A stretch of DNA of 46,433 bases from Candidatus Bathyarchaeota archaeon (GCA_030602965.1 JAUVYS010000002.1:1-46433); one strand, 5' to 3'. Counted from the first letter of the stretch, positions 6,152 to 45,509 are shown. A program made the numbers and translations. The notes: generated by a model from the letters alone, not told the origin.

Positions 6152-6164
6152 TTCAACTCACCTA

Positions 6165-6185: not shown

Positions 6186-6383
6186 TTAAAAATGACCTGG
6201 AGGAGGATATTTACCAAAAAATTCTATTAATTCTTCTACAAACTTGTCAATACGTTTCTTAATTTTCTTCTTGATCGTTTTGAGCTTCATCTTTCTATTC
6301 ATCTTCGGACAAACCAAAAAACCGCGAATAAACCCGAAGAAATCAATCCATCAACCTGAACTCCCATAGTTATAAACTCCTCA

Positions 6384-7367: not shown

Positions 7368-8234
7368 TTAAACTTTGAATATGCCTGTATCAACCCATTC
7401 ATGTTTTATGATCGTCCACCAATCGATTGCTAAACCTGTTAAAACATACTCGTAAGGTAACCATCCATAACCGTTATCACCCCAACCCGTACCCCAAGAA
7501 TTTCTGATGAGTAACGCTCCAACAGTATTTTTTCTGCAAATATTATTCTTAATCTGCCTATCATTGTTGTATCCAACAGCCACCACAGCATGACCTCCAA
7601 GAATCCTTTCTCCACGACATGGATAAGGAATCTTCCCATCTCCTGCTGCTTGTCTGATTGAACTGTAAACTGTAAATCCGAACATGGATGGCAGGCCAGC
7701 CGCTAAATTCGTTTTGATTCGAGCTAACAAAATGTCTTTAGGTGTAAGTGAAGGATCTAACCTCACATACTTAAGTGGTTGATAATTTTGTGCAAAAGAA
7801 TAACAAAACGCGGAAGGCTCATCATCAAATTTACTGATGACATACGGCATATATTCCTCCGGAGGAACACCGAATAATCTCATTGCTCCCATAGTTGTAC
7901 GGAGGTATGCTCCAGTGTCTCCAGTCCAATGAAGCAATTTCCGTGTTACCTTGTAAAGGAAGAGTCTGGATGCATCAATATGTCTTCCAAAAGCCTTCCG
8001 TTCATAATATTCAACTAAAGATATACCAGCGTTTGCTGTGCAGGAACCGAGGGCACCTTGATCCTCAATCGGTGGACACCACGCACGGAGATCCACAGCA
8101 GTTGGAAGACCAACTTTTAAAGGCTCAACAATCCCCATTGTTTCTATCATAGATTTAACTTTTTCATGTTCCAGTGTGTAATCTCTAAAATCAGGTAAAT
8201 CAGGAAGCCATCCCATACTTCTTACTTCACTCAT
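7368..8234 (-). CDS. papain-family (C1A) cysteine peptidase
   Basis: QGALGSC (catalytic Cys), GGHAVVAVGY (His) and NSWGTGWGDNGYGW (Asn-Ser-Trp) appear in the canonical order. Confidence 0.88.
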   Translation of the reverse strand: MSEVRSMGWLPDLPDFRDYTLEHEKVKSMIETMGIVEPLKVGLPTAVDLRAWCPPIEDQGALGSCTANAGISLVEYYERKAFGRHIDASRLFLYKVTRKLLHWTGDTGAYLRTTMGAMRLFGVPPEEYMPYVISKFDDEPSAFCYSFAQNYQPLKYVRLDPSLTPKDILLARIKTNLAAGLPSMFGFTVYSSIRQAAGDGKIPYPCRGERILGGHAVVAVGYNNDRQIKNNICRKNTVGALLIRNSWGTGWGDNGYGWLPYEYVLTGLAIDWWTIIKHEWVDTGIFKV

Positions 8235-10832: not shown

Positions 10833-11030
10833 TTAACCATAATATGATGTGTCGTGAAGACAGCCTAATTCTTGTGATCCACAGAAAGGACAATATTTCG
10901 GTTTTTCCTTAAGGTTTTCCTGCTTATTACTATCTTCTTCAGGAATCCAGGGATAAGTTGATTTTACAACCATTGGAAAATCTAAATTACATTTTTTACA
11001 TGTAATCCAACCAAGACCTATTTCTCCCAT
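10833..11030 (-). CDS. zinc-ribbon protein (65 aa)
   Basis: CKKC...CPFCG motifs. Confidence 0.6.
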   Translation of the reverse strand: MGEIGLGWITCKKCNLDFPMVVKSTYPWIPEEDSNKQENLKEKPKYCPFCGSQELGCLHDTSYYG

Positions 11031-11404
11031 CTTTTTCTCCTTCTCTTCTTCATATATCCCCTTGGAATTTTTGCGTAAAAAGGTTTAGCTAACACGTTTT
11101 CAGAGAGCTCTTTTCCCACGATTGAACCCCACCAATTAAGACGGACATTAAAAGTGAATGTGTAACCTTGCAGTTCAAAATAAGCTACACGTCCTTTACA
11201 GTCATTAAGCATCATGAGTTCATGCAGGGTGAATCCTTCTTTTGCGTAAATATGATAGCCTCTCCCTGAAGGACTACTCCTTAACTCAACAGTCTTACCA
11301 AGGTAACGAGCATTAAAATATTTTTGTAGCATACGGAATTGATTACAATAATCCATATCAACTGACTGGGCTCTTGTAGGTCTATGAGGAATGGTTTTAA
11401 TCAT
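11018..11404 (-). CDS. hypothetical protein with archaeo-eukaryotic primase (AEP)-like motifs (128 aa)
   Basis: VDMDY (DxD-like) and SPSGRGYHIY (sGxGxH-like) lie 33 aa apart. The protein is too short for a canonical AEP. Confidence 0.35.
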   Translation of the reverse strand: MIKTIPHRPTRAQSVDMDYCNQFRMLQKYFNARYLGKTVELRSSPSGRGYHIYAKEGFTLHELMMLNDCKGRVAYFELQGYTFTFNVRLNWWGSIVGKELSENVLAKPFYAKIPRGYMKKRRRKRWEK

Positions 11405-11767: not shown

Positions 11768-12721
11768 TCATTTTTTCTTGCGCCCTCTTTTTGCGCCTGC
11801 ACGTTCTCCTAATGGAATATCTTCATCCCACGTCATATCTCCACTGTCTTTTTCTCCCGGGCTAGCAAAAACTCCACGTCTACGCCAGTACCAATCATAA
11901 AAAATAGGGGTTACTTCTTCTTTTCGACTTATTAATTCACGGATTATTTCTGGTGGTGTATCTGAATATGTTGCGCTTGGTTCTGCCGTGATGCTTCCAT
12001 AGAACATGGACTTAAACCAAGTTCTGATTTTTGTTGTAGCATACGTTAAGTAATACTGTGTTCTAGATCCTCTAACGTCATAGTCTAAACTGATGCTTAT
12101 TATGATAATTACGCCTTCACTTTCTGTATCAACATTGGCAGTTACAGTGACATGGTGAATTCGAGTCTCTAATATTTCATGTTTCTGTTTTAAAAAGGCT
12201 TCTTCTTCTCTAATTGATGTGGTTAAGGTGCTGATTTGTCCAAGGTAATATTCATAATTACTTCGCAGTTCAGCAAGTCGAATGATATAAGTTTGTTCTC
12301 GTTTTATCCAGCCTCGATATGCACCTAGACTTCTTCGATCCCGAGTCTGCCAACCTTCATAAGAACTTATTACCCGTATCAATTTACGGATTGATTCAAG
12401 AATACTGAGTCGTCTTATAGGAATAGGTAGAGGCCATTCATACAAACGTTCTTGAAAAATAGTTAAACGTTTACTTATCTCTTCAATTTTTTGTTGTCGA
12501 TCACTTATTCTATCTTCTAAGTTTTGAATAGCTTCACGTCTAGTTTTTATTCGTTCATCTCTATCAATATCTTGTTCTTTTTTTATTAATTGAGTGATTT
12601 CATCCAAGTATGTTTTAGCAGCAGACAATTGTTCCTTAGAATCTTCAAGGATTTCTTCTTCACGAAGTATTTCAGCAGTTAATTCTTCATCTGATAACTG
12701 ACTGAAATCTATAAAAGCCAA
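11768..12721 (-). CDS. coiled-coil protein (317 aa)
   Basis: The N-terminal 200 aa are heptad-like and E/K/R-rich. The C-terminus is basic. Confidence 0.7.
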   Translation of the reverse strand: MAFIDFSQLSDEELTAEILREEEILEDSKEQLSAAKTYLDEITQLIKKEQDIDRDERIKTRREAIQNLEDRISDRQQKIEEISKRLTIFQERLYEWPLPIPIRRLSILESIRKLIRVISSYEGWQTRDRRSLGAYRGWIKREQTYIIRLAELRSNYEYYLGQISTLTTSIREEEAFLKQKHEILETRIHHVTVTANVDTESEGVIIIISISLDYDVRGSRTQYYLTYATTKIRTWFKSMFYGSITAEPSATYSDTPPEIIRELISRKEEVTPIFYDWYWRRRGVFASPGEKDSGDMTWDEDIPLGERAGAKRGRKKK

Positions 12722-12737: not shown

Positions 12738-12902
12738 TCAGTCTGTTTTTATCCGTCTTACTATAGGTGGACGTTTCTTCTGGAGAACACGGTATCCACA
12801 ATGAGAACATTTAATGCGACCACCGCGCATTTCTAGTTCTTTATATGAAGTGTCACGTCCACATCGAATACATTTATACATTAATTCGTCTTTTTCACTC
12901 AT
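12738..12902 (-). CDS. rpoP: RNA polymerase subunit P (RpoP/Rpb12)-like zinc ribbon, 54 aa, absent from the ORF track
   Basis: MSEKDELMYKCIRCGRDTSYKELEMRGGRIKCSHCGYRVLQKKRPPIVRRIKTD matches the Y.C..CG...i+C..CGyR+L.KkRpp...+vk pattern. TAATG coupling links it to the upstream ORF. Confidence 0.7.
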   Translation of the reverse strand: MSEKDELMYKCIRCGRDTSYKELEMRGGRIKCSHCGYRVLQKKRPPIVRRIKTD

Positions 12903-13153
12903 TAATAACAAAACCCTTGTTCACGATCATATTTACATTTACGTCGAATCGGGGCGGCGCGGTTCCACCAAAGCTTCATATCTCCAGCTTCCCGTCGTTG
13001 CTGTACACGACAATGACTACGACAATACTCATTTTGTTCAAGAATATTCACTTGTCTATATCGTCTTCCCCTTAACCTTCTCATACAAAGCATACAATCT
13101 GATATAGGAGGATCGATTACGTTTTGCATCTCTATAATCATTAAAGACTGCAT
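12902..13153 (-). CDS. Cys-rich basic protein (83 aa; alternative start at MIIEM)
   Basis: CMLC...YCRSHC...C motifs. First gene of the operon that contains the RpoP-like ORF. Confidence 0.55.
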   Translation of the reverse strand: MQSLMIIEMQNVIDPPISDCMLCMRRLRGRRYRQVNILEQNEYCRSHCRVQQRREAGDMKLWWNRAAPIRRKCKYDREQGFCY

Positions 13154-13163
13154 GAACCTTCAC

Positions 13164-13184
13164 TATTATATACTGAGTTTTTGC
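13164..13184 (-). promoter_or_regulatory. bipartite upstream motif GCAAAAA-N7-TATAAT; its AT-rich core is shared with the divergent rightward gene
   Basis: Minus-strand reading: GCAAAAACTCAGTATATAATA, then GTGAAGGTTCATG. Confidence 0.55.
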
Positions 13185-13196
13185 TTATTTTAGCAT

Positions 13197-13733
13197 GTGG
13201 CTGGTTTGGATAAAGATAAGATTTCGTTGGCTAAACTGTTTCGATCCAAAAAAAAATTGAATACTCCCCTGCAACGGGCATTATACAAACCGTCACTAAT
13301 AGAATTATTAACAGCGGAACCGGAAGAGGACGGGGTGATCGTGGAGGATGTTGCAGTCGTCCTTAAACCTTATGGAAAAACTAAAAGTATGATAGCACGC
13401 GTTTTTCCTTTGATTGAAATCCAAAAATTTAAGCCGTTGATCGACAGAAAAAAAATAACTGGATTAAAAATAACAGTGAAGGATGGTGCGTTAGCATGTT
13501 TAGTCGCTTCGGGCTGTGGAACTGTAAGTCAAATAACAGGTTTTTTACGCGCAGTCTCAGTACATTACCCTGAATTTAAAGATGTGAAAACCGAGACGGT
13601 TGGCCAGGCTCTCAGCAGATTAGTTGCAGGCAGAATCATTCAACCTTCTTCAGATTATGTGTCTGGAGAAAAAGTGCAATGCTTATCAGTGCCTAAACAA
13701 AAAGAATTATTATACAGAGAACGATGGTGGTAA
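13197..13733 (+). CDS. putative DNA-binding protein with two winged-helix-like segments (178 aa, GTG start)
   Basis: LIELLTAEPEEDGVIVEDVAVVL and TVSQITGFLR...TVGQALSRLVAGRII segments. Confidence 0.5.
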   Translation: MAGLDKDKISLAKLFRSKKKLNTPLQRALYKPSLIELLTAEPEEDGVIVEDVAVVLKPYGKTKSMIARVFPLIEIQKFKPLIDRKKITGLKITVKDGALACLVASGCGTVSQITGFLRAVSVHYPEFKDVKTETVGQALSRLVAGRIIQPSSDYVSGEKVQCLSVPKQKELLYRERWW

Positions 13734-13734
13734 C

Positions 13735-15243
13735 GTGCCACTGACAAAAGAACAGTTAAGATTGATTTGGGATCGTTGGAGAACAAAGTATCCCTGGGAT
13801 GTTCTTAAACGTACTTTTCCTTTTCCTCAAAACCTTATTTCATTATATGATTGGTGGACAGGAATCTTACATTCAAGAGGAGTAGACATTGACGAATATG
13901 ATTTTGAAGCTTATCTTGATCCAACTTTAACAAGAAAAGAACATGAACAACTCCTTGAAACATTGATTACTGCTCCTCCAGGAGAAGAAATGTATGAAGC
14001 ATGGGCGCAAGAAGCCATAAATAAAATACAGGATGAAGCTAGAGAAGCCGGATTATTAGAACCGTACGAAAAAAAAATTAGAAGTCTTGAACGAACAGAA
14101 AAAAAATCCAAACGAAAATATGAGAAAGCGAAAGAATTAGAAGATGAATTACGAAGAGAACTCCGAGAAAAAGAGGGTGAGGTTGAACGATTAAAACTAA
14201 CTAAAAAAGTCACTGTGAAATTCACACGTGACTATCCTAGTTTTGTCGGGTATGATTTAGAAACTTATGGTCCCTTCAAAACAGGTGAATTAACAAGTCT
14301 TCCAGAAGCAAACGCCGCCATCTTAATTGAACAAAAAGTGGCTTCTATTTGGGGTATACCTAAAATTGAAAAAGTTTTACCGGTAATGCCTCCAAGAGAA
14401 TTGACAAAAGAAGAGAAAAAGAGGCTTCAAGACGTTTTTAACGCTGCTCTTTTTGATGGTTTAGGCCGGATACCTGCAAGCACTATTTCTAAGTTCAGGG
14501 TTGAACTCGAAAAAATTAAGGATCTGTCTTATGTTGAAGCAGAGAAACGTATTTTAGAGTTAGCACAAGAAATTGTTGGAATGATTATAGCCACTAAAAA
14601 AATTGTGCCTGCCAGACCGCCTAGAAAAGTTGAAGTTTATCGTCCACCACGAGAAGAAGATGAACTCTACGCTATGCCTCATGTTTCACCTGCCGAACCT
14701 CCTGAATGGCCGTTAGAACCGCCTGTAATGAAGTTTCCACGAAGCCCCTCAAGTCGAGAGGAACAAGCATTTTGGAAAGCTTTTCAGTATAAACTTCAAA
14801 CGCAGGGATTTAATCCTTGGGAGTGGCAACGAGAATTTAACAATTATATTTCTAAGATGCAGTTCCGTAGCTGGAAAGCTCTTGTTAAAGCCTACGAATT
14901 GTTTGTTGAAACCATTAAGGAAAAGAAAGAGCTTCCACCGTTATGGCAGTGGAGCGGGGTTCCACCTCCAAGCTTAAACTATTTGCCAAAAGAATTAGAA
15001 AAGAAAAGAGCAGGAGCCATAATTCACTACACATCAGTATTGATTAGAAACGCTAGACGTGCGCGTGAACCTTATCAACCAACCTTAGAAGAACTGAGAG
15101 AGGATCTCGGTGATATTATGGGTATAACTAATGTAACATTTGATGAAATAAAAACTGCTTTAATGGAAGCTTACAAAGAAAAAGACGTAAGACTAATAGG
15201 GATTACACTGGAAGAGTTAAACAATTTTCTGGAAGCAACCTAA
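13735..15243 (+). CDS. large hypothetical protein (about 502 aa; E/K coiled-coil plus Pro-rich segments)
   Basis: The GTG at 13735 follows GGTGG and the upstream stop. Track start 13624 or the ATG at 13657 are alternatives. Confidence 0.65.
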   Translation: MPLTKEQLRLIWDRWRTKYPWDVLKRTFPFPQNLISLYDWWTGILHSRGVDIDEYDFEAYLDPTLTRKEHEQLLETLITAPPGEEMYEAWAQEAINKIQDEAREAGLLEPYEKKIRSLERTEKKSKRKYEKAKELEDELRRELREKEGEVERLKLTKKVTVKFTRDYPSFVGYDLETYGPFKTGELTSLPEANAAILIEQKVASIWGIPKIEKVLPVMPPRELTKEEKKRLQDVFNAALFDGLGRIPASTISKFRVELEKIKDLSYVEAEKRILELAQEIVGMIIATKKIVPARPPRKVEVYRPPREEDELYAMPHVSPAEPPEWPLEPPVMKFPRSPSSREEQAFWKAFQYKLQTQGFNPWEWQREFNNYISKMQFRSWKALVKAYELFVETIKEKKELPPLWQWSGVPPPSLNYLPKELEKKRAGAIIHYTSVLIRNARRAREPYQPTLEELREDLGDIMGITNVTFDEIKTALMEAYKEKDVRLIGITLEELNNFLEAT

Positions 15244-19552: not shown

Positions 19553-21112
19553 TTAGTTGACACCCACATAAGTTATTATGTCATTCAACGTGCCGATGCA
19601 CCATATTCTATCTGTATTATCTATATCATAACTGACGGTGCAACCAGGTCTCAGAGCGTAGCCAGTGCCCGCAACCACAGTATTATCATTCCCTACGTAA
19701 ACCACAGCGTTACCCAAAGTTCTGTCAGAATCATTCTCTATCGTCACGCTTTTACAAGCATTCGCTGGAAATTGTTGTGCAGCCCCACCCATTGTAACTT
19801 GTCCATGAATTATAGATGTTGGTGATGCTTCTTCGGTTTCAAGAGGTTTACCTTCCTCCTGGTTAATCATCATTACAAAGCTGCGTTTGACTACTGCTTC
19901 ATCCACGAGAAAATTGGTGAGTGTCGTTCCTGCAGCGCTTGTTATCACGTATATGGCAACGTAAGTTACCGCTGATAAGTTGGCTCCAACACCTATCACC
20001 CCGTCTACTTCACTCATTAAACGATGGTAATGATGCCACTGGTCGTATTGAATATCGGCAAGAGGAATTTCCCAGTAAAACAGGTTGCCCGCATCTGTTC
20101 CCAACGCAATATACAGGTTAGTTATTGTGCCGCCTACAGGCGTTGGAACATACATGAAGCACATAACTTTTGCGTGAGTGCTATACACACTTAAATCTAA
20201 AGCCGCTGGAGGAACAAAAGATACTCCACCTAAAACTCCACCTGCAACTTTATCCCATTCAACACTGTTAGTACCCTGTCCTCTATGATCAGTGTTTAAA
20301 GCAAGATTCAATGTGCTGCCTTCAAGTGAAACACCGGCAAGAGAGTCGAAACCTGCCAGTAACACTTTAGCTGGAGCTACAGGTATGCTGCCATCAGGAT
20401 AAACTTCACCATCATCTGTAAAATCTGTTAATTGAACTTTTCCAACTTGACGGGTTGGTCGATCAATTACGTCTACTGCTCCTCCAGCTAAAACATCCGA
20501 GAAACTGAAAAGGTAGAATATACAGTCTTGAGTTGCAGACGCCGCCCAAGCAGGAGGTGTCAATGAAACACAGAAGTTTCCTGCATGAGTTGGAGTTGAA
20601 GAGTCTATTCCTACTTCAACCTGTCCCGCAACAGAAGCAGATAGCCAGATAACGATAACATAGTCTTGTTGAGGTTCAAGAGTGTATGGTGTGGTGAAAT
20701 GAAAATTCACTAGCTCAATAGTTAATCCTAAAGATGGCTCTGTGCCTAACACGTTATCGCTTGTAGCTAACACTCCGCCCGCTATGTCTGGAACAGCGTC
20801 TACACCAACCACTGTGCCTGCTAAAACCCTGTAAAGCCTTGCTTGAAGAATATTTCCCGCAACAGCGAAGGCTGCGTTTCTTTGAAGATGAAACGATACG
20901 TCTGTCAACCGTAACAGTGCAATGGGTGAGGTGAAGGCTTGACCGCATGCCTCGTTAACCGCGTTTAAAATTGTGCTTGTATCCTGGTTTGCTTTGCCGT
21001 AGCTTTCAATAAGGTGGCTTAACAAGTTTCCCCAATTGATAGGTAACGGGTTAGCTACTCCTACATTGGCTCCGTCAATCCATAAATCTACTTTTTGTCT
21101 TGGTTCAGCCAA
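19553..21112 (-). CDS. large beta-rich structural-type protein (519 aa, TTG start)
   Basis: Longest ORF of the module. Rich in G, A, T and V with no TM segments. Confidence 0.7.
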   Translation of the reverse strand: MAEPRQKVDLWIDGANVGVANPLPINWGNLLSHLIESYGKANQDTSTILNAVNEACGQAFTSPIALLRLTDVSFHLQRNAAFAVAGNILQARLYRVLAGTVVGVDAVPDIAGGVLATSDNVLGTEPSLGLTIELVNFHFTTPYTLEPQQDYVIVIWLSASVAGQVEVGIDSSTPTHAGNFCVSLTPPAWAASATQDCIFYLFSFSDVLAGGAVDVIDRPTRQVGKVQLTDFTDDGEVYPDGSIPVAPAKVLLAGFDSLAGVSLEGSTLNLALNTDHRGQGTNSVEWDKVAGGVLGGVSFVPPAALDLSVYSTHAKVMCFMYVPTPVGGTITNLYIALGTDAGNLFYWEIPLADIQYDQWHHYHRLMSEVDGVIGVGANLSAVTYVAIYVITSAAGTTLTNFLVDEAVVKRSFVMMINQEEGKPLETEEASPTSIIHGQVTMGGAAQQFPANACKSVTIENDSDRTLGNAVVYVGNDNTVVAGTGYALRPGCTVSYDIDNTDRIWCIGTLNDIITYVGVN

Positions 21113-21359
21113 TTACTACACCTAATTCAAATTCGAGTACGGTAAGCTCTACTTCTTCTTCATGTTTCTCTATTTTATTTCCATGCATAATTGACTGTTT
21201 CACTTTAACTTTAACTTTCTTCTTTTTATGTTTCGGTTTTTTCAGTTTCTTAACCTTCACTCTTTTCGGCTTCTTTTCAGGCTTTTCAGGCTTCTCCTCT
21301 TCTTCTTCTTCAGGCTCCTCTTCTTCTTCTTTCGGTTTCTTCTCTTTTTCTTTGTTCAT
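21105..21359 (-). CDS. charge-block K/E-rich protein (84 aa from MNKEKEK)
   Basis: An acidic block (EEEEEPEEEEEE) is followed by a basic block (KKPKRVKVKKLKKPKHKKKKVKVKVK). Confidence 0.55.
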   Translation of the reverse strand: MNKEKEKKPKEEEEEPEEEEEEKPEKPEKKPKRVKVKKLKKPKHKKKKVKVKVKQSIMHGNKIEKHEEEVELTVLEFELGVVIG

Positions 21360-21360
21360 G

Positions 21361-21837
21361 TTAGTAACCTGATGTTTCAACTAATCCAGCTAAGTTCACG
21401 TTTAAATCAAACGTGGGGTTTCCAGAGAAGACAGCGAAAAGAATATAGTAATATTTGCCTTCTATAGTTGGGATGCCCTTGGTGAATTTTAGTTTTACAA
21501 CTCCATACCCAAATTTTTGTGCCATTATTTGTTCCAGAACTACGCCGGATTCATCATATCTAGCGAATCCTCCATAAACAAGAGCATTAATGAGTGTAGC
21601 GAATTGTATCTCATAAAAATGAAAAGGTAATGCTGAAGCGGGAACTAAACCTGCTAATGCTACGCCATAGATATTAAAGAAAGGCAGAGTTGGAACACCA
21701 GTATATGCAGCGCTATACATTACTCTGCCTTGATCGCTTCGGATGAGGTCGCTTGTGCCATACTCCACATTTATAGAGTAGTCTGGTAAGCCGACGCCTA
21801 ACGGTGTAACACTAAAAGTTTTTTCGATAACGACCAA
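21361..21837 (-). CDS. beta-rich protein, paralog A (158 aa, TTG start, MVVIEKTF); candidate capsid-type protein
   Basis: The first about 25 aa and about 40 nt are nearly identical to 21847..22311. AGGTG SD is present. Confidence 0.65.
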   Translation of the reverse strand: MVVIEKTFSVTPLGVGLPDYSINVEYGTSDLIRSDQGRVMYSAAYTGVPTLPFFNIYGVALAGLVPASALPFHFYEIQFATLINALVYGGFARYDESGVVLEQIMAQKFGYGVVKLKFTKGIPTIEGKYYYILFAVFSGNPTFDLNVNLAGLVETSGY

Positions 21838-21846
21838 TTATGACAC

Positions 21847-22311
21847 CTACAAACTTAGTTGATAACGGGTTAGATCCATATCTACACCGTGAACAGTATA
21901 TACACCAAGTAATGCTCCGAGAGAATGATTAGTTATTTCAAGTCTATAACCTGACAAGAATTTGCCGATGGGCATCCCCCGCGACAAATGTTTCTCTATG
22001 TTTTGATAATCATATTCTTGAAGAAAAGCCGCTTCTGGACCAGTTATAGGTACTGCTATCGCATCTAATTGTAACAATACATTTGCAGGTACACTAACAA
22101 AAAAGTCGTACAGCATCCAAACTCTGTCAACAGGCCGTGTTTGAAGGTCTAAAACAGTTACGCCAGGATTAAGCATTGCTTGCACAGAATAGGTATATGC
22201 GGTTTCCCAACTGCGAATAACAGGCTCGACACTAACTTCAACGTTTTGGCTGTAATCTCTTCTTCCAATTCCAAGAGGTGTAACAGCAAAAGTTTGTTCT
22301 ATAACGACCAA
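21847..22311 (-). CDS. beta-rich protein, paralog B (154 aa, TTG start, MVVIEQTF); candidate capsid-type protein
   Basis: Tandem duplicate of 21361..21837. Confidence 0.65.
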   Translation of the reverse strand: MVVIEQTFAVTPLGIGRRDYSQNVEVSVEPVIRSWETAYTYSVQAMLNPGVTVLDLQTRPVDRVWMLYDFFVSVPANVLLQLDAIAVPITGPEAAFLQEYDYQNIEKHLSRGMPIGKFLSGYRLEITNHSLGALLGVYTVHGVDMDLTRYQLSL

Positions 22312-22709
22312 CTTTTTCTCACACCCTCAAGATCAAAAATAATACCCGGCGTATGAGGATTACCAGCATCAGTGTTTTGCACTTCAACAAATAAGCGTTG
22401 ACCGAGCATAACATCTTTATAAACGGGGAACGGGGGGGTTGCATTATCTAAAGCGATGAAACCGTTTGAAGGTATTATCTGTATCTGTCCGATTCCAGCT
22501 CTTAATAACACTAAAGCATTACAACCATTTGGATAATGAAAAGTTATGCTGATGCATTTACCTGTAAGTGGACATACTTCACTCATAATTATTCCTGTTG
22601 AAGCTAATACAATTTGTCTGAATTGAACTTGTGCTGTTTGTTTCTCGTATTCTTGAAGTATGGATTCGTCTATTTGTCTTGGTTGAAACATACTAGTCTT
22701 GTTGAACAC
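22299..22709 (-). CDS. beta-rich hypothetical protein (136 aa)
   Basis: ORF in the structural chain. GTG start lies 5 nt after GTGAG. Confidence 0.6.
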   Translation of the reverse strand: MFNKTSMFQPRQIDESILQEYEKQTAQVQFRQIVLASTGIIMSEVCPLTGKCISITFHYPNGCNALVLLRAGIGQIQIIPSNGFIALDNATPPFPVYKDVMLGQRLFVEVQNTDAGNPHTPGIIFDLEGVRKSWSL

Positions 22710-23991: not shown

Positions 23992-24291
23992 TTATCTTAG
24001 TCGCTTACGGATCACTCTTTCTCCTCGTCTAGCCGCGGCTTCTGCGAGTTCTCGACCTAAAGCTGTGAAAATAAAGAAGCCTATTACTAATCCAACAGCC
24101 ATTCCTGGAATGAATCGATCGAAAGATGATGTTTGAAAAGATTGTTTTTCAAGCCGTAATTGAAATGGTTGTTTCCCAAGCCGTAACTGAAATGATTGCT
24201 TCCCAAGCCGTAGTGTTTTGCTAACACGTTCGCCAAGTCGTTCGCCAAGTGTTTTTTCTTCAAATTCTACTTCTTCATATAAGAAGACCAT
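23992..24291 (-). CDS. tagged (MVFLYEEVEF) single-pass membrane protein with internal 9-aa repeats
   Basis: LRLGKQSFQ x3, LGER x2, and the TM segment IPGMAVGLVIGFFIFTALG. Confidence 0.7.
   Translation of the reverse strand: MVFLYEEVEFEEKTLGERLGERVSKTLRLGKQSFQLRLGKQPFQLRLEKQSFQTSSFDRFIPGMAVGLVIGFFIFTALGRELAEAAARRGERVIRKRLR
24134..24214 (-). repeat. three in-frame 27-nt tandem repeats; a 12-nt x2 repeat lies at 24227-24250
   Basis: Units at 24134-24160, 24161-24187 and 24188-24214 encode LRLGKQSFQ-type units. Confidence 0.85.
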
Positions 24292-27522: not shown

Positions 27523-28284
27523 TCAAGTTTTCATCCCCCATTTCTTCACGGTTTTTGTTTCAATAAATTCTAGAATGATGTTTTCCATTAAGATGCCGAG
27601 AAGGGAGATGCAGAAGAGGGTGCCAAGCATTCCCGCCGCGTTTAATTGAAATCGATTAACGTAGATAAGCCAGCCTAACCCTCCTTTACCGCCTACTGCA
27701 CCGAACACTAATTCGGCGGCGACTACGCTTCTCCAAGCGACTCCCCAAGCACTTCTGAAACCGGTGATAAGATGGGGAAGAGAGGCAGGTAATAATATGT
27801 ATCTGACTAAAGGTAATCCTTGAAGACCATAATTTTTTCCAACTTCCACTGTGATTCCTCTAAGAGTGTTCAGTCCATTCATGATGTTAAGGGTGTAGGG
27901 ACATAATGACCCGAAAATAGTTATGAAGATGATAGCGTTCTCTCCTAGGCCGAACCATAAAATAGCGAAGGGAAGCATTGAAATGGCTGGAACTGGATTA
28001 AATATTGAAATTATCGCTTCTACTACAGGTCTGGTTCTTTGTGAAAGAGCAGATAAGGTTCCAAGGATGAAACTTAAACAACTGCTAATTGAAAGTCCTA
28101 TGAATAATAACTTGAAAGTGTAAGTGATAGCTTCAAAAAGCCTGGTGTAATGAGTTATCATATAGATGATTGTGTCTGTTATTGATGGAAAAATAAAGGG
28201 GGAGAAGATACGTATTCGCGCAATTGTTTCCCAAAGGGTTAATGCTGAGAAAACGAAAAAGATTTTGATATGTGACTTTTTCAT
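27523..28284 (-). CDS. ABC transporter permease, NitT/TauT (sulfonate/nitrate/taurine) family
   Basis: Six TM segments. NPVPAISMLPFAILWFGLGENAIIFITIFGSLCPYTLN resembles the SsuC/TauC signature region. Confidence 0.8.
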   Translation of the reverse strand: MKKSHIKIFFVFSALTLWETIARIRIFSPFIFPSITDTIIYMITHYTRLFEAITYTFKLLFIGLSISSCLSFILGTLSALSQRTRPVVEAIISIFNPVPAISMLPFAILWFGLGENAIIFITIFGSLCPYTLNIMNGLNTLRGITVEVGKNYGLQGLPLVRYILLPASLPHLITGFRSAWGVAWRSVVAAELVFGAVGGKGGLGWLIYVNRFQLNAAGMLGTLFCISLLGILMENIILEFIETKTVKKWGMKT

Positions 28285-29327
28285 TTTCCTATCAATCCTT
28301 TTGTTTCTGCGAATAGCATATCTTCAAACGTTAATGTTTTTTGTATCAAGTCTAGTTTGTGCATTATTGCTGCTATGTCTTCTACTGCAGATAAACCGAA
28401 AGTTGGATTCCACATTAAGCATGGTTGCCCCAAACGATTCTTAAGGAGCCATAGATCCCAAGCTTCATCTGGTTCGTATTCATAGACTAATCCTATAATT
28501 TTTGATGCTTCCTGCGGATTGTTAATGATGTATTCGGTGGCTTTGAACCACGCTGTCATAACAGCAGATAATAATTCTGGATGTTCTTCACAGAATTCAA
28601 CTCGACCGATAAGAGAGCTTCCTGGAAGAGGAGTACCCCAAATTTCAGTGTCACAAGTAACCATGTGATATTTCGATTTTGTTTCACCTTCAGGATTCAC
28701 TTCAACCGCATTAGCATATTGAATTGTGTAAGGAACTCCAGTGAAAGCACAATCTATTTGTTTTTCTTCCATCAATTGAAAAGCGTCTGGGTGAGTGAAG
28801 AATACACTCACAGCATCAGCTTCTTCTTTTGTTCTACCTAAGTCACCGAAGGCTTTGATTAATCCTGCTTGTTCAATGCTTCCAAGTTTTACAACTCCAA
28901 CTTTGTCTCCACGTTTAATGTCGGCTATTGATTGGATATCCTCTCTCCAAGTCCAAAGTTCATGTTCTTTGCTTCCCATACTTAACAAGATTTTAGTGCC
29001 TATTTGTTGGTCTACTCCTTTAATGGCGGGCGCGATCCCCATAGATCCGAACTCTAAGCTTCCCGCTACAAAAGCCTCATTGATTGCTGTTCCTCCACTG
29101 ATTTTTTGAAATATGCCTATTGCTGTGCCATTTGAGTATTTTTGTAATAGATTAAAGTGATCTATGATAATGTGTTGTCCATAATGAAAACCGAATTGAT
29201 ACGCGAAACGTACTTCGGTAACAGATATTTCAGGAACATAGGGATTAGACATTGAATACAAGAAAACACTAGACAAAATAATTAGAGTTAAAGCTAAAAC
29301 AACTGATACAACTTTATATTTATTCAT
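28281..29327 (-). CDS. ABC transporter substrate-binding protein, NMT1/THI5-SsuA-like
   Basis: N-terminal TM/signal anchor. The ATG at 29327 overlaps the ATPase stop (ATGA). Placed in an operon with the permease and ATPase. Confidence 0.7.
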   Translation of the reverse strand: MNKYKVVSVVLALTLIILSSVFLYSMSNPYVPEISVTEVRFAYQFGFHYGQHIIIDHFNLLQKYSNGTAIGIFQKISGGTAINEAFVAGSLEFGSMGIAPAIKGVDQQIGTKILLSMGSKEHELWTWREDIQSIADIKRGDKVGVVKLGSIEQAGLIKAFGDLGRTKEEADAVSVFFTHPDAFQLMEEKQIDCAFTGVPYTIQYANAVEVNPEGETKSKYHMVTCDTEIWGTPLPGSSLIGRVEFCEEHPELLSAVMTAWFKATEYIINNPQEASKIIGLVYEYEPDEAWDLWLLKNRLGQPCLMWNPTFGLSAVEDIAAIMHKLDLIQKTLTFEDMLFAETKGLIGK

Positions 29328-30046
29328 TGTTTCACCTCCATTTCCTTTAATACTGCTGTCCAATACTTACCAAAGTCTGCGCTGGCAACGTTTCTTGGTC
29401 TAGGTAATTCTATGTCAAATATTGATTGGATTCTGCCTTTTTTAGATAAGACAACCACTCTATCGGCAAGAAATATGGATTCTCGAATGTTATGTGTTAC
29501 AAAGAGTATGGTTATCTTAATTGTTTGCCAGATCTGTACCAGTTCAGACTGTAACCTTCTTCGAGTTTGCGCGTCAAGGCTTCCGAACGGTTCATCCATC
29601 AATAATATGGACGGGTTCATTACAAGCGCGCGTGCAATCGCCGTTCTCTGTTTCATGCCTCCACTCAATTCATGAGGGTATTTGTGTCTTGCATCTGTTA
29701 AACCAACAAGTTCTAACATTTCAAGAGGTTTTCTAGATGATTTATTTCCTGATAGTTTTGGGCCGAAAGCAATATTTTCAATTGTGGTTTTCCAAGGAAG
29801 CAATTGATTTAATTCTTGAAATACCATAAATCTCGTTGGTGACGGTGCAATTATAGGCTTATCATCATGTAATACTGTGCCAGTGTAGGATTCAAAACCT
29901 CCCACCACCCGTAATAAAGTGGTTTTTCCACAACCCGAAAAACCGACTATACAAACAAAATTTCCATCATCTATATTTAGATTGATGTTGTCAAGAACTT
30001 TGTTTGAATCAAAACTTTTTGAAACGTTTCTAAGAGTTAAACCCAC
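29324..30046 (-). CDS. ABC transporter ATP-binding protein (TauB/SsuB-like)
   Basis: Walker A GFSGCGKTT, signature LSGGMKQR, Walker B LLMDEPFGSLD. Confidence 0.9.
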   Translation of the reverse strand: MGLTLRNVSKSFDSNKVLDNINLNIDDGNFVCIVGFSGCGKTTLLRVVGGFESYTGTVLHDDKPIIAPSPTRFMVFQELNQLLPWKTTIENIAFGPKLSGNKSSRKPLEMLELVGLTDARHKYPHELSGGMKQRTAIARALVMNPSILLMDEPFGSLDAQTRRRLQSELVQIWQTIKITILFVTHNIRESIFLADRVVVLSKKGRIQSIFDIELPRPRNVASADFGKYWTAVLKEMEVKQ

Positions 30047-30505: not shown

Positions 30506-31087
30506 CTATCCCTGGCATGACACCACCTCCTTACCGTTCCAAACTATTTCTATTGGAACGATTTCATATTTTCTTTTCAAATGATCTAAAGAATTACAGA
30601 CTTTACATAAAACATTTAAATCATCAGTTTTTCTCGTCCCATTTAAAATGCTTCGATGAAAATATCCTTGTCCTCCAACATCAAATTTCTCTTTAGATCC
30701 TCCTCCATTAACATGATTTATTTCTAAAAAACGAATGTCATCGCAACCACAATTAACACATTGAGGAATATTATTACCAGAAACTTTTTGAAGAAGCTTC
30801 AAACGTAATTTCACGCGGTAAATACGTCTTTCTTCTGGATGTTCTCTTGCGTATTGTCTTTTTTGGGCACGTTCTCTTTCTTTATTCAACTCATACCATT
30901 CCTTGAAACTATTTTTTCGTTTTTCTTTATGTGTTTCCCAACGTTTTTTCTCATATTGAGATTTACACTTCTTACAACGTGAATCTAATCCATTAAGTCT
31001 TGTAGGATCTTTATGAAATTCACTAATAGGTTTTTCTTGTTTACATTTATAACATCGAAAAATCGCGATCTTCTCATTTGTAGGCAT
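30506..31087 (-). CDS. HNH endonuclease with an N-terminal zinc-binding region
   Basis: CYKCKQEKP...CKKC at the N-terminus. C-terminal CVNCGCDD...EINHVNGGG...LCKVCNSLDH. Confidence 0.75.
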   Translation of the reverse strand: MPTNEKIAIFRCYKCKQEKPISEFHKDPTRLNGLDSRCKKCKSQYEKKRWETHKEKRKNSFKEWYELNKERERAQKRQYAREHPEERRIYRVKLRLKLLQKVSGNNIPQCVNCGCDDIRFLEINHVNGGGSKEKFDVGGQGYFHRSILNGTRKTDDLNVLCKVCNSLDHLKRKYEIVPIEIVWNGKEVVSCQG

Positions 31088-31625
31088 AAATCATAAACCT
31101 TTCTTTTCTTTCAGGTGGCACAGCAAACGTATATTTTGGAAAAAATGGCTTAAGCCAATCATCTATTACTGCATTACTTATTTCCTTCCATTTGTGTGTT
31201 TCAGACGGATCATTCCAAGGAGAAGCGAACGTAAAGAATCCTCCTTTTTTTAATACTCGATACACTTCAGCAATAAATCTTTTAGGATCATCTAAGTGTT
31301 CCATCACTTCAACGGCAAGTATCGAGTCAAACACTTCGTTTCGGAAAGGCAGTTGTTCAACATTACTACGCGCGCGCGGTCTAGAGCCGCCTACCCAACG
31401 TTTTTTTAAGGCTACACTGCTGAAGTCAAGAAACAAACCGTTTTTTATGAATCTGGCTAAACAGCCAAATCCACATCCAGCATCAAGCACATATCCTTTA
31501 GTTTTTTTTGCCATAATAATCTTGTAAGGCCAAGGATGTTCTGCTTGGCGTTGAGTTCTAGGAAGCCATTGATCAAAGTGTTCATCGTATTTTTGTGGGC
31601 TTCCCTCTGTCCTGTACCAACTCAT
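31074..31625 (-). CDS. class I SAM-dependent methyltransferase
   Basis: Motif I VLDAGCGFGCL and post-I/II FDSILAVEVMEHLDDP...LKKGGFF. Confidence 0.8.
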   Translation of the reverse strand: MSWYRTEGSPQKYDEHFDQWLPRTQRQAEHPWPYKIIMAKKTKGYVLDAGCGFGCLARFIKNGLFLDFSSVALKKRWVGGSRPRARSNVEQLPFRNEVFDSILAVEVMEHLDDPKRFIAEVYRVLKKGGFFTFASPWNDPSETHKWKEISNAVIDDWLKPFFPKYTFAVPPERKERFMIYAYK

Positions 31626-31636
31626 TTAAAATTACT

Positions 31637-31864
31637 TCACAAAATTTTCTTTTCTAGTATATCAGGAAGTTTAAGGAGGATCTTAGCCATCTTCAATTCA
31701 TAAACTGCTATCCCCATTAAGTGATGTTGTAATTCATGAAGAAGAAAACGCCCAAGCAAAATCCGATTCCTAGCAAAAATGATTATTTCAGGTACGTTAT
31801 AATCAATAAAGGCTAGGTTTTCACCGTTTGTTAATTTAACTGAAATTTTAGGAATAAGCTTCAT
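31637..31864 (-). CDS. small protein with an HExxH motif (75 aa)
   Basis: HELQHH. Too short for a confident metallopeptidase assignment. Confidence 0.4.
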   Translation of the reverse strand: MKLIPKISVKLTNGENLAFIDYNVPEIIIFARNRILLGRFLLHELQHHLMGIAVYELKMAKILLKLPDILEKKIL

Positions 31865-31869
31865 ACATT

Positions 31870-32517
31870 TTACAAACCTAGCTTTTCATAATTGAGTTGC
31901 ATATTTAGTCGACTGGGAAATCTGCAATGTTTCATATGTATTATCGCCATTTTTGTTAAAGCTATTTTAGGCCACTTGTCTCGATGAATTCCTTTAGCAT
32001 TATAGAGTTGGTAATGTTTCCCTTGCCAATGTAAACCTTTTTGCCATTTCAGAAAACGTGGTTTCCAACCTAAATATTTCAAGTGAAACTCTAGTTTCTT
32101 GTTTAAGTAAGGTTCCCACATACGCACATAAGCAACTAAAGCTTTCCCTGATTTTCTAATTCGATTGAAAGCTTTTTTGATGTTTCCTGATGGAATTTCA
32201 TCATCGCTCAAAAGGTATTTCCATTCACCAGGCTTCCAATACTTTCTTTGTTGCATAAACATTTTCTTAGCTATTTCATTTTCATAAAAGTTAGTGCAAC
32301 GTATCCAACGTAAATTACATTTTAACTTTAGACTGGCAATAACATCTTCAGTTCCGTCTGTACTGTGAGGAACATTAGTATAACCCGCGTCCTTCATAAA
32401 TTTGAAGGCGCCATCAAAACATTGTATTTCATCTACATGATTATGAACTGCTAAGAGAGGTGCCGCAATGAATTGAGCGCAATTCCAACAGAAACTTTGA
32501 ACGATTATTCTACTCAA
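31870..32517 (-). CDS. GT-A-like glycosyltransferase candidate (215 aa)
   Basis: STDGTEDVI and LSDDE (DxD-like) motifs, in a glycosyltransferase cluster. Confidence 0.45.
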   Translation of the reverse strand: MSRIIVQSFCWNCAQFIAAPLLAVHNHVDEIQCFDGAFKFMKDAGYTNVPHSTDGTEDVIASLKLKCNLRWIRCTNFYENEIAKKMFMQQRKYWKPGEWKYLLSDDEIPSGNIKKAFNRIRKSGKALVAYVRMWEPYLNKKLEFHLKYLGWKPRFLKWQKGLHWQGKHYQLYNAKGIHRDKWPKIALTKMAIIHMKHCRFPSRLNMQLNYEKLGL

Positions 32518-33404
32518 TGAAATGTTTCCTCTATAAATTTGATTGCTCTTAGACAGGCTTTTCCATCGATTTCTCCCATCACTTTTTCACGCCAGCCTAA
32601 ATGTTTGGTTATATCTGGATTATCAAAACATTTCTTGATGACAAGTCTCAAACTGTTAAAGTCTGCTTTTAATACGCCTCCAGGAAAAACTCTGCCCCAT
32701 TTCTCTCCCTGTTTCATGTGGATCGAAGGTCTGCCAGTAGCCATGAATTCCCAGAGAACCCCGCTTGATTCAGATACTACTATGTCTGCTAAGGGAAAAA
32801 CAATTGTGATATCACTTAAGGGATCAAGCAACTTCATTTTGTTTTTCTGTAGTTCGGATGTCATATTTTTGTATTGATCTTTATAAAACTGGTATGTTCC
32901 ACCGTGAGCTTTAACGAGTAAGGTGAAGCTTAATTGTTTGGATAAAGTGATTAGTAACTTTAAGGTTTTCATGCGATTAAAATCGTGCATGCTTGAGGCG
33001 TAAAGAACTGTTTTGGTAGATGATTGTTTCCGGTTTCCAAAAAGAAAGTCGCTTTTCGGCCATCCTACAATTTTCGATTTACGAATGTTTTTCCATTTAT
33101 TCACCCACCAACTGCCAGGGAGCATGACGGCTTTGAAGAGTTTCATGTGTTTGTAATCTTGTTCGGCTGGATTAGTGTGATAAGGACTTAAGCTGTGAAA
33201 ATGATATATCGTGTTTTTTGCGCGTGGAAGTGCTTCTTGTGCAGTTGAAGAAACAATATGATTGTATTTCGTTGCTTTTTTGAATGGTTGATTAAATACT
33301 GCTACAGCGTCTTTACCTAATTCCTTCATTTTACGGTAGATTGGGCGTATAGCGGCTGAGTGTTGTTCAGCTACAGAATAAAAACAGATTGTTAAATTAT
33401 TCAC
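32514..33404 (-). CDS. GT-B-like glycosyl/glycerophosphotransferase candidate (296 aa)
   Basis: The C-terminal VVSESSGVLWEFMATGRPSI resembles a GT-B donor-binding region. Confidence 0.45.
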   Translation of the reverse strand: MNNLTICFYSVAEQHSAAIRPIYRKMKELGKDAVAVFNQPFKKATKYNHIVSSTAQEALPRAKNTIYHFHSLSPYHTNPAEQDYKHMKLFKAVMLPGSWWVNKWKNIRKSKIVGWPKSDFLFGNRKQSSTKTVLYASSMHDFNRMKTLKLLITLSKQLSFTLLVKAHGGTYQFYKDQYKNMTSELQKNKMKLLDPLSDITIVFPLADIVVSESSGVLWEFMATGRPSIHMKQGEKWGRVFPGGVLKADFNSLRLVIKKCFDNPDITKHLGWREKVMGEIDGKACLRAIKFIEETFH

Positions 33405-34260
33405 CTTTGTATGTATATTTTTTGATTTGTTCTTGTGTTATGCTTGTTTCAAAATGCTTAAATAGCTTGAATTTTTTTTTGGTTTGTAAAAGTCGATTTT
33501 TCTTTACGATTCTTTGATGAGTGTTTGTTTTGAAATCTCTATAGTTTCCTCCACCCGGCATTTTAAACCGTACATCTTTCATCTCTCGGCAATCAGCGTT
33601 TCGGACATAAACACTTCTAAGATTATGATGTTTTTGTCTAGCGTGATAATTGCTGTCTTCTAAACCGTAAAGACTCCATTCTCTGAAATATCCAAGTTTC
33701 TTGAATGTGGAAGCATTGAAAACGTAGATTCCTCCTGGATTAGGACAATTATCTAATATGACACCGTTAACAGTTTTCCACTGAGTGACTTTGAACCATT
33801 TATATTCTCGTCTTTTTCCGAAGCCCTGCACGTTAGAGCCGACTACTCCTAATCCATCATATTTTCCAAGTTCACTTTTAGGAATGTTAGTAGCATAACA
33901 CATGTAACTTAGCCAGTAAGGACTCCTCACTTCTATGTCATTGTCTATGCAAGCATACCAGTTTGCTTTATCTTTCCAAGTTTTCAACCCGTAGTTTTTG
34001 CCTCTGCCTATACCAACATTTTTAGGTAAAAGAATAACCTTATCAATTTTCCCTGTACGTTTAAGATGTTTCAGTTTTTCTGGTGTTCCATCCCAGCTAC
34101 CATTATCTACAACTGTTAAGGTGTGTGGTAAATGCGTGTTTTTGAAGATTGATAATAGACTTAGACGGGTGAGACTCCATCGATTAAAACACACCATGAT
34201 GATAGCTACTTTTTTCTTAGCGGTTTTCATTTGTGCACTGTATTTTTTGGGATTGAACAA
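33397..34260 (-). CDS. family 2 glycosyltransferase
   Basis: VAIIMVCFNRW, VVDNGSWDGT and CIDNDIE (DxD) motifs. Confidence 0.75.
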   Translation of the reverse strand: MFNPKKYSAQMKTAKKKVAIIMVCFNRWSLTRLSLLSIFKNTHLPHTLTVVDNGSWDGTPEKLKHLKRTGKIDKVILLPKNVGIGRGKNYGLKTWKDKANWYACIDNDIEVRSPYWLSYMCYATNIPKSELGKYDGLGVVGSNVQGFGKRREYKWFKVTQWKTVNGVILDNCPNPGGIYVFNASTFKKLGYFREWSLYGLEDSNYHARQKHHNLRSVYVRNADCREMKDVRFKMPGGGNYRDFKTNTHQRIVKKNRLLQTKKKFKLFKHFETSITQEQIKKYTYKGE

Positions 34261-35571
34261 TTAAGAAAGAAACTCCTTCTTTTTTTGTTCAATAAATTGA
34301 CGATCAAATTCATTGCTGCGTTGCCTCTTTTTTATGTATGTTACACCTTCAGGCCAGCCCCAATCAAGTTTTACTTTTCTGTTAAGTATTGAAAGTTTAG
34401 ACTTCCAATTATCTAAATATAGTTGTACTGCGGATTGTGGGATACCTTTACCAGTTTTTCTTTGAGTGTAAGCCCAAAAATGAGTGAGAACAGCTTTTGG
34501 ACAAAAAACATTTCGTAAATTTTTCATCACTACTTTAAGACCGTAATCTACATCAGAATATCCGAAACGATATTCTTCATTAAGGTACCCTACTTTTTTG
34601 ATGGTTGATCTTTTGATTAAGAGGCAAGCACCTGTATTGAAGGGAACATTACGTGATTTATACGCGGCTTGTATGGATATTGGAGCACCTTCAAAAGGAT
34701 GATGAGGTGAACCGCTATGTATAGCTCCTCCGATATGCTGTATTCTTCTATGGGGATAGAATAGTTTAGCGCCGACAGTGCCGATCCTACTGCTGGTCAT
34801 GGCATAATTAACCATTTGAGTGAGCCAGCCTTTATGTCGAGCGAAAACGTCACTATTCAATAAAACAAAGAAGGCACCCTTACTTTTTTTGATGGCGATG
34901 TTGTTTCCTTTCGCCCAACCGAAATTGCCGTGATTCTTAATTAACTTTAAGTAGGGTTGCCGCTTTAACCAAGAAATACTTTGGTCAGACGAAGCATTAT
35001 CCACAACGATTAATTCGTAAGGATAAATCGTGTTTTTGAGGATGCTGGCGATTCCCACCGGTAAAAGCTCTAAAGTGTTATAGTTAAGAATTATAAGACT
35101 GGCAAAGCTTTGTTTAGGATCATAATTAATAATTTTACTCTTTGTTATTTTCAAGTTCTCTGCAAATGGGATTTGGTTAGGCAACGGTTTACGTGGTGGT
35201 TTAGGGGGTGCGCCAGCGTGTGTAAGGGATCCCATAGTTATTGTTTTCAAAAGTTTTCTTTTTTGTCCCTTACATCCTTTTTTTACATCAGGAAAAAGAA
35301 CTTTATTTCCTAAATACACAGCAGAATGACAATTGATCGTTTCAGTTTCCAAGTAATTTATGATTGTGATAATTCTGTTTTTACGATTAATTTTAAGAAT
35401 GAGTTGGCTTTCGCACCAATATAAAGTGAAGGTTACATGCCAAATGAAAGGGGATAATTGTTTTATCGTACAATATTGTTTTTCTTTTGTTGTTATTACT
35501 TGACCTGTATCCTGTACACGTATCCATAGATCAGAAATATTCCATGAGCGCTGAGTAGTTTTCGGAGTCAA
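34261..35571 (-). CDS. protein with a C-terminal family 2 glycosyltransferase domain (436 aa)
   Basis: SLIILNYNT, VVDNASSDQS and VLLNSDV motifs. The N-terminal 140 aa are unknown. Confidence 0.75.
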   Translation of the reverse strand: MTPKTTQRSWNISDLWIRVQDTGQVITTKEKQYCTIKQLSPFIWHVTFTLYWCESQLILKINRKNRIITIINYLETETINCHSAVYLGNKVLFPDVKKGCKGQKRKLLKTITMGSLTHAGAPPKPPRKPLPNQIPFAENLKITKSKIINYDPKQSFASLIILNYNTLELLPVGIASILKNTIYPYELIVVDNASSDQSISWLKRQPYLKLIKNHGNFGWAKGNNIAIKKSKGAFFVLLNSDVFARHKGWLTQMVNYAMTSSRIGTVGAKLFYPHRRIQHIGGAIHSGSPHHPFEGAPISIQAAYKSRNVPFNTGACLLIKRSTIKKVGYLNEEYRFGYSDVDYGLKVVMKNLRNVFCPKAVLTHFWAYTQRKTGKGIPQSAVQLYLDNWKSKLSILNRKVKLDWGWPEGVTYIKKRQRSNEFDRQFIEQKKKEFLS

Positions 35572-42544: not shown

Positions 42545-42614
42545 TTATAAGGTGTAAGTTATAAGGTGCAAGGTATACGTGATAAGGTATCAGGTGTAAG
42601 GTATACGTGATAAC
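42545..42614 (+). repeat. five tandem 14-bp iterons (centromere/operator-like) abutting the parA start
   Basis: TTATAAGGTGTAAG, TTATAAGGTGCAAG, GTATACGTGATAAG, GTATCAGGTGTAAG, GTATACGTGATAAC. Confidence 0.75.
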
Positions 42615-45409: not shown

Positions 45410-45509
45410 GATAGAGAAAGAGAATAAGAGAGGAAAAGACAGAGAAGGAGAGATAGGGAGAGAGAGGGAGAAGGAGAGAGAGAGGGAGAAGGAGAGAACA
45501 GAGAAAAAT
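45410..45509. repeat. polypurine/polypyrimidine (GA-rich) tract of about 100 nt with an 18-nt tandem repeat
   Basis: Pure purine run at 45455-45498. GAGGGAGAAGGAGAGA occurs twice with period 18. Confidence 0.85.

Follow-up and report, generated by a model that had tools for sequence, protein, structure and literature searches.

Viral homologs of the host transcription machinery are a known theme, and a core-subunit copy on an archaeal mobile element extends this theme. The subunit concerned here, Rpo12/Rpb12 (RpoP), is a zinc ribbon at the periphery of the polymerase assembly platform; its contacts are with Rpo2 and Rpo3, and its C-terminal tail makes part of them. According to a 2022 review, none of the more than 230 sequenced archaeal viruses encodes any RNA polymerase subunit homolog (PMC9501531), which agrees with the remark in a first-pass annotation of the present DNA that such a gene is not known as a standard feature of archaeal viruses. 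Homologs of RNA polymerase subunits are likewise not mentioned in a survey of Bathyarchaeia viruses from 2024 (PMC10848311), and the accessible part of a 2026 provirus survey names ‘RNA polymerase’ for three proviruses of archaea but gives no detail. We scanned IMG/VR with the 54-aa protein described below and with a Bathyarchaeia-type RpoP alignment and found no RpoP; tblastn searches of GenBank phage and archaeal-virus records and of PLSDB plasmids were likewise negative for RpoP. The sole IMG/VR match (L096) was rejected, being a generic zinc ribbon in a phage. What is new here is RpoP on archaeal mobile elements showing no catalytic RNA polymerase subunits; the protein family itself is known.

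The DNA that we analyzed (hereafter the window) is a whole metagenomic contig of 46,433 bp, of which an identical 10.8-kb piece is present in Logan run SRR14872671. An independent gene call on that Logan contig predicted both the 54-aa ORF and the 83-aa ORF in the following list.

12738..12902, minus strand: RpoP/Rpo12/Rpb12 homolog, 54 aa, with basic C-terminal tail KKRPPIVRRIKTD (Pfam, NCBIfam, PDB, AlphaFold/Foldseek, identity to Bathyarchaeia RpoPs)
12902..13153, minus strand: basic 83-aa ORF, pI 9.6, six cysteines, without known relatives (translation; gene call on the Logan contig)
13154..13189, minus strand: promoter/operator-like motif TAAGCAAAAACTCAGTATATAAT, followed by GAAGGT (resembling a ribosome-binding site) and ATG (exact pattern match at 13167..13184)
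11768..12721, minus strand: 317-aa ORF with a probable N-terminal coiled coil and a basic C-terminal tail, 16 nt downstream of the RpoP homolog

The ORF at 12738..12902 on the minus strand translates to 54 aa, MSEKDELMYKCIRCGRDTSYKELEMRGGRIKCSHCGYRVLQKKRPPIVRRIKTD, identical to the translation on which the first-pass annotation had based its proposal of an RpoP/Rpb12 homolog. The protein consists of a CxxC-x17-CxxC zinc ribbon followed by GYRVLQKKRPP, with Y-x-C and C-G motifs flanking the zinc knuckles. Pfam family PF03604 (Zn_ribbon_RPAB4; RNA polymerase 7-kDa subunit) matched it with 26.3 bits (E = 6e-6, model positions 1–32 of 32), above the gathering threshold of 24 bits; a genuine cellular Bathyarchaeia RpoP scored 28.7 bits. 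The next-best Pfam families were ~1000-fold weaker, and RpoP thus beat other zinc ribbons in the profile comparison that the annotation had suggested. All five NCBIfam RpoP models matched the protein, four of them as the top matches (four of the top five; best E = 4e-10). Its best score against the RpoP equivalogs (NF001604–NF001608) was 39.3 bits, below their cut-offs of 63–103 bits; because cellular Bathyarchaeia RpoPs reach only 39–46 bits on the same models and fall below too, this failure is uninformative.

Comparison with structures led to the same family. The nine best matches among PDB chain sequences were all Rpo12/Rpb12 (E = 4e-7 for Rpo12), from Pyrococcus, Thermococcus, Sulfolobales, plants and animals, with alignments that extended through the C-terminal tail. 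With 24 homologs as input, AlphaFold gave a model (pLDDT 82) whose top Foldseek match was chain P of the Pyrococcus furiosus RNA polymerase (8cro_P), and eight of the top nine matches were Rpb12/Rpo12 chains, including chain L of Pol I/II/III/IV (TM 0.57–0.71). The Foldseek E-values were weak (0.03–0.1) because a fold of ~45 residues is tiny. All residues that are invariant across the 24-sequence alignment were kept (Y9, C11, C14, G15, C32, C35, K42, P46). The C-terminal tail (GYRVLQKKRPPIVRRIK) gave a gap-free alignment with the corresponding tails in Thermococcus/Pyrococcus Rpo12 and in Bathyarchaeia RpoP, the pattern tested being GYR-hL-K-x-RPP-x-V-K/R-R-h after the second knuckle. We concluded that, as first proposed, the 54-aa protein truly belongs to the RpoP/Rpo12/Rpb12 family, since all the sequence and fold tests that we ran point to it, and that the resemblance is far beyond chance in the Pfam, PDB and homolog searches (E = 6e-6, 4e-7 and 3.6e-14, respectively).

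A word-indexed protein search recovered just the query for the 54-aa and 83-aa ORFs; an exhaustive HMMER search was required to find relatives of the 54-aa protein. Run against 1.84 billion representative proteins, this search gave 108 matches at E ≤ 1e-3, and the best relatives showed 57–60% identity (best E = 3.6e-14) and carried the JGI annotation RpoP/RPC12. When GTDB was scanned with each species represented by one genome, 145 relatives were found. Among the best 80 of these 145 loci, 78 were labelled Bathyarchaeia/Bathyarchaeota, and the remaining two came from a Thermoproteota SAG without further classification and from a MAG labelled ‘uncultured archaeon’. The 54-aa protein was 52–66% identical to Bathyarchaeia RpoPs, depending on the alignment; its mean identity to the cellular copies was 58%, compared with 80% among the cellular copies themselves. 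It has in common with Bathyarchaeia RpoPs a 17-residue inter-knuckle loop with ELExRGGx(I/V)KC, whereas the loop of Thermococcales RpoP is 15 residues long and does not contain the ELExRGG motif. Substitutions were concentrated in the inter-knuckle loop, where the exposed part reads RDTSYK instead of the AKVSTE of host RpoP, and the knuckles and tail were kept.

The first-pass annotation had proposed a phylogeny against host RpoP. In a neighbor-joining tree the 54-aa copy had a long branch and was placed at the margin of the Bathyarchaeia cluster. Bootstrap support was 92% for Bathyarchaeia plus the 54-aa copy against the PDB RpoPs and 41% for a position outside Bathyarchaeia, a tree of 48 residues being too short to decide between inside and outside. 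Base composition was 37.5% GC, and tetranucleotide frequencies correlated with those of low-GC loci of the Bathyarchaeia set (r up to 0.95). By these comparisons of sequence, the 54-aa gene is derived from a Bathyarchaeia-type RpoP lineage and is strongly diverged. The host of the element that carries it is probably also a member of the Bathyarchaeia, judging from this single gene and from nucleotide composition.

The 83-aa ORF (12902..13153, minus strand) ends ...TGT TAT TAA, and its stop codon overlaps the ATG of the 54-aa ORF (TAATG), which confirms the coupling described at first pass. That reading had also suggested that the 83-aa ORF might encode a second small polymerase-associated zinc protein, with a faint likeness to RpoN/Rpb10. 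Neither idea gained support: the ORF gave zero Pfam or NCBIfam matches even at E ≤ 10, zero homologs in a search of 5.8 billion proteins, and chance-level matches only against the PDB (best E = 0.08, a mitochondrial ribosomal protein). We rejected the RpoN/Rpb10 reading because the ORF has no detectable relatives and no Pfam, NCBIfam or PDB similarity.

The operon is headed by a motif, as had been noted, at 13167..13184 on the minus strand, and seven similar copies precede other minus-strand genes. The pattern TAAGCAAAA-N7-8-GTATA(G/A)-N2-5-GAGGT-N5-8-ATG describes all eight sites, each of which lies before a gene or operon.

759, 1371, 4033, 4894, 6168, 6387, 13167 and 45394, minus strand: sites of the shared upstream motif

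Support for the motif comes from the common alignment of the eight sites and from their placement before genes; a scan at three mismatches gave 14 matches where 9.4 were expected, which is not significant alone. The spacing is a clean fit to neither an archaeal TATA box (−26) nor a bacterial −10 element. We regard the motif as a putative element-specific promoter/operator. A hairpin that would hide the ribosome-binding site by ACCTCA/TGAGGT pairing was rejected, as RNAalifold gave no consensus pairing.

Downstream of the RpoP homolog, the 317-aa ORF is presumably co-transcribed with it; its Pfam matches were at chance level only and mostly to coiled-coil families. Another ORF of the operon (128 aa, 11018..11404, minus strand) contains VDMD...SGRGYHIY...ND, which recalls motifs I–III of archaeo-eukaryotic (AEP) primases; an AEP primase reading was unsupported by Pfam profile or PDB search. 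Divergent from the operon is a 539-aa ORF (13624..15243, plus strand) with a Gins51 C-terminal (B) domain (PF22090, E = 3.7e-15; PDB matches to Thermococcus Gins51, 3anw_A and 5ghr_B). In host GINS, the B domain binds GAN (the Cdc45/RecJ homolog of archaea). By its domain match, the ORF appears to be a second case, beside RpoP, in which the element mimics a small module of host machinery.

The first-pass annotation had placed the RpoP homolog on a mobile element, and the rest of the window supports this. Its ORFs are mostly without relatives: Pfam matches were found in about one-fifth of the ~80 ORFs scanned, and in 3 of the 27 genes called on the identical Logan piece, compared with 9/14, 11/15 and 12/12 genes around the cellular rpoP genes examined. 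No tRNA, rRNA, Rfam match or housekeeping gene was found on the contig. The features that could be recognized outside the RpoP operon include the following.

42546..42601: four 14-nt iterons, TATAAGGTGTAAGT-like, upstream of the ParA gene
42607..43362: Soj/ParA ATPase (Pfam AAA_31, E = 7e-51)
43355..43624: 89-aa ORF downstream of ParA, whose N-terminus ALGKGIGSGLDSVI resembles the ParB N-terminal motif
7368..8234: C1 peptidase
27523..30046, minus strand: complete NMT1-type ABC transporter (binding protein, permease, ATPase), host-like cargo
31074..36571, minus strand: methyltransferase and GT1/GT2 glycosyltransferase cluster, host-like cargo
21361..21837 and 21847..22311, minus strand: tandem jelly-roll paralogs (154/158 aa), within a module at 19553..22709
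6451 (plus strand), 9026, 24291, ~25035, 25953 and 26368 (all minus strand): start codons of six ORFs with a shared N-terminus

The region 42546..43624 is a predicted partition-like locus, with ParA, a ParB-like N-terminus and iterons. Among the small ORFs we found a PHROG HNH-endonuclease match and weaker endonuclease VII and Lar-like matches; the other recognizable genes encode methyltransferases, glycosyltransferases, the ABC transporter, the C1 peptidase and a glycosyl hydrolase. Profile searches of the contig ORFs detected no capsid, terminase, packaging ATPase, integrase or replicase hallmark, and Pfam scans of the ~80 ORFs detected no RNA polymerase subunit family besides RpoP. DNA and protein searches of the neighboring regions against phage records and IMG/VR gave no match. 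The contig has neither direct nor inverted terminal repeats, and for this reason the element may be incomplete or, conceivably, integrated into a chromosome. Judged by gene content, it looks like an episomal element that is either virus-like or plasmid-like.

Several smaller features were observed on the window. The six ORFs with a shared N-terminus are otherwise dissimilar and begin M-V/P-F/L-L-Y-E/D/P (MVFLYE..., MVLLYE..., MPFLYD...), a peptide that could be a targeting or processing signal. Three tandem 27-nt repeats (24133..24213) lie inside the ORF at 23992..24291 and encode LRLGKQxFQ repeats. Near the contig end is a purine-only, GA-rich low-complexity tract (45414..45507).

Both jelly-roll paralogs share the N-terminus MVVIExTFxVTPLGxGxxDYSxNVE. 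For one of them the predicted fold (pLDDT 70) is a jelly roll of eight strands, preceded by a disordered N-terminal arm, and Foldseek returned single-jelly-roll capsids (BMV, CCMV, IBDV, STMV) together with non-capsid beta-sandwiches; the jelly-roll match is a generic one. The 519-aa ORF of the module is beta-rich. The gene order of the module (136, 154, 158, 84 and 519 aa) is kept on other contigs of 43–76 kb from other metagenomes, at these places.

L093:9600-12100: module on related contig
L094:10000-12450: module on related contig
L099:9650-10900: module on related contig

The module is probably the virion module of an undescribed element family. The contigs that share it (L093–L095, L098–L100) also consist mostly of ORFs without known relatives, and a pattern scan of IMG/VR found no member of the jelly-roll family. 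These contigs are distant relatives of the element, and no RpoP was present in the 20-kb pieces of them that we examined; because of this, RpoP is not demonstrably conserved in the element family. On a further related contig (L102), a 78-aa zinc ribbon with a weak Thermococcales RpoP match was a generic ribbon by Pfam.

RpoP homologs were also found on three other unrelated contig families that consist mostly of ORFs without known relatives. For all three homologs (P0011, P0012, P0020) the best NCBIfam matches were RpoP models.

L003/L004, ENA contigs of 65–78 kb: P0011, with 28–29 co-directional genes in the 12-kb stretch around RpoP
L089/L090: RpoP homolog beside a weak Laminin-G match
L091/L092: RpoP homolog beside DUF5131

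The 12-kb stretch around P0011 has almost no Pfam matches except PCNA, a DUF7736 protein and a collagen-repeat protein. The P0012 contig carries the weak Laminin-G match and large ORFs without known relatives, and P0020 adjoins DUF5131. Within the stretches examined, RpoP was the only gene common to the 46-kb contig and the three other families. In contrast, four homologs (P0111, P0124, P0119, P0033) lie in a cellular setting, among thermosome, STT3, Trm112, wyosine and nucleotide-sugar genes. A cellular 131-kb contig (L002) carries two tandem RpoP-like ORFs (5809-5913 and 6136-6285), one of them truncated, with thermosome, TIP49 and HSP20 as neighbors; cellular duplication of RpoP therefore occurs as well. 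On a 2-kb contig from JGI 3300042965, P0038 (L097:979-1752) consists of an RpoP-like zinc ribbon with an RGG loop fused to an N-terminal fragment of Rpo2 (RNA_pol_Rpb2_1, E = 2e-10, model positions 7–93), followed by an unrelated tail; from its domain matches it is a chimeric protein built of RNA polymerase parts.

We favor, with a little better than even confidence, the joint reading that a captured and diverged RpoP resides on a mobile element and is built into the host polymerase, context claims included. By this reading an extrachromosomal virus- or plasmid-like element would have captured RpoP from a Bathyarchaeia-type host and would express it, within a cluster of several small genes, downstream of a motif specific to the element. 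In the host polymerase the 54-aa protein would occupy the Rpo12 site, which lies between Rpo2 and Rpo3, and would bind there by means of the conserved zinc knuckles and the GYRVL-x-K-RPP-x-V-R-R tail. Polymerases made during the life cycle of the element would then carry the element's subunit with its altered exposed loop, which may either supply a limiting assembly subunit or mark or tune the polymerase for the element, and the co-transcribed proteins possibly act together with it. The comparisons above establish the family of the 54-aa protein, the host lineage that it comes from, its divergence, its mobile-element-like surroundings and the recurrence of RpoP on other such contigs, whereas its attachment to the polymerase and any influence on transcription are inferred. 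A wider generalization, that viruses or plasmids of Bathyarchaeia and allied archaea have captured and remodeled Rpo12 time and again so that the infection-time polymerase receives an element-specific subunit, is put forward tentatively, and we hold it to be rather doubtful.

Other explanations differ in which part of this reading they replace. A generic zinc ribbon with no relation to RNA polymerase is effectively refuted as the identity of the protein: weak matches to many zinc-ribbon families (Pfam, E = 0.006–0.2) and the weak Foldseek E-values are what such a protein would show, but RpoP-specific models outscored any other family by 3–6 orders of magnitude, the top nine PDB matches were all Rpo12/Rpb12, and the 52–66% identity to annotated cellular RpoPs includes the C-terminal tail, which is not part of the zinc ribbon. 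The window could instead be a stretch of chromosome, from a genomic island or a poorly known lineage, with the cell's own or a paralogous rpoP. The tandem RpoP-like pair on L002 shows that cellular paralogs exist, and neither terminal repeats nor an integrase were found on the window. We nevertheless consider a chromosomal origin very unlikely, given 46 kb without any housekeeping, tRNA or rRNA gene, the 3 of 27 genes with Pfam matches on the Logan piece as against 9/14 to 12/12 around cellular rpoP, the ParA/iteron partition locus, and a jelly-roll module that is common only to similar contigs with mostly ORFs without known relatives.

If the gene is RpoP and the element is mobile, the protein might still serve another end, or none. 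A host rpoP captured by chance, as a passenger without a role for the element, would fit the other host-like cargo (ABC transporter, glycosyltransferases, methyltransferases) and the stretches of distant element relatives that lack RpoP. Such a passenger would hardly be expected to have diverged by ~40% from every cellular copy with its invariant positions intact, to be translationally coupled inside a tight operon, and to recur on at least three unrelated mobile-element-like contig families as the sole shared gene, and we judge this explanation quite improbable. The element RpoP might also act as a decoy or inhibitor that binds Rpo2 or Rpo3, gives defective or blocked assembly and stops host transcription. 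Its strong divergence from host RpoPs is in keeping with such a role, for which host TFS4 and the RIP of ATV are precedents as small polymerase-binding proteins that inhibit globally (PMC7289017, PMC9501531). However, the family-invariant residues and the C-terminal tail are all kept, the protein scores as cellular RpoPs do in Pfam and NCBIfam, and an element without its own polymerase would silence its own transcription too; inhibition is, in our estimate, unlikely.

A core assembly-platform subunit carried by mobile elements, and found on several unrelated ones, would be a kind of interplay between archaeal elements and host transcription that is new. On the wider generalization, the polymerase would be customized from within the core enzyme and not via initiation factors or inhibitors, and RpoP and the adjoining Gins51 B-domain protein would be two mimics of small host-machinery modules on one contig. 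The RpoP copy also gives a host link to Bathyarchaeia for an element family found in neither IMG/VR nor GenBank. The idea is directly testable: the element RpoP has just 54 residues, and archaeal RNA polymerase can be put together from recombinant subunits.

Viral genes homologous to cellular RNA polymerase subunits are likewise present in giant viruses, poxviruses and jumbo phages. These encode catalytic subunits and a complete enzyme, whereas the 46-kb contig yielded the smallest subunit alone in the Pfam scans. With rudivirus TFB homologs and the sigma factors of phages, the resemblance is that the element likewise contributes its own component of the transcription machinery without a catalytic polymerase (PMC9501531); they are promoter-reading initiation factors, whereas the element RpoP belongs to the structural core of the enzyme and is not known to contact DNA. 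RIP (ORF145) of ATV and host TFS4 are small proteins that act directly on RNA polymerase in virus-host conflict. RIP is unrelated to any polymerase subunit, unlike the element RpoP. TFS4 is a repurposed paralog of a polymerase-associated zinc-ribbon protein (PMC7289017), but it is host-encoded and binds in the secondary channel and not at the assembly platform. The nearest counterpart is the cellular Bathyarchaeia RpoP/Rpo12 itself (RPABC4; PF03604, COG1996), which has the same size, zinc ribbon, YxC and CG motifs, GYRVL-KK-RPP-VKR tail, 17-residue ELExRGG loop and predicted fold as the element copy. The element copy differs in being encoded on a ParA contig of mostly relative-less ORFs and not among cellular genes, in its coupling to an 83-aa ORF without known relatives, and in the substitution of its exposed loop and several tail positions.
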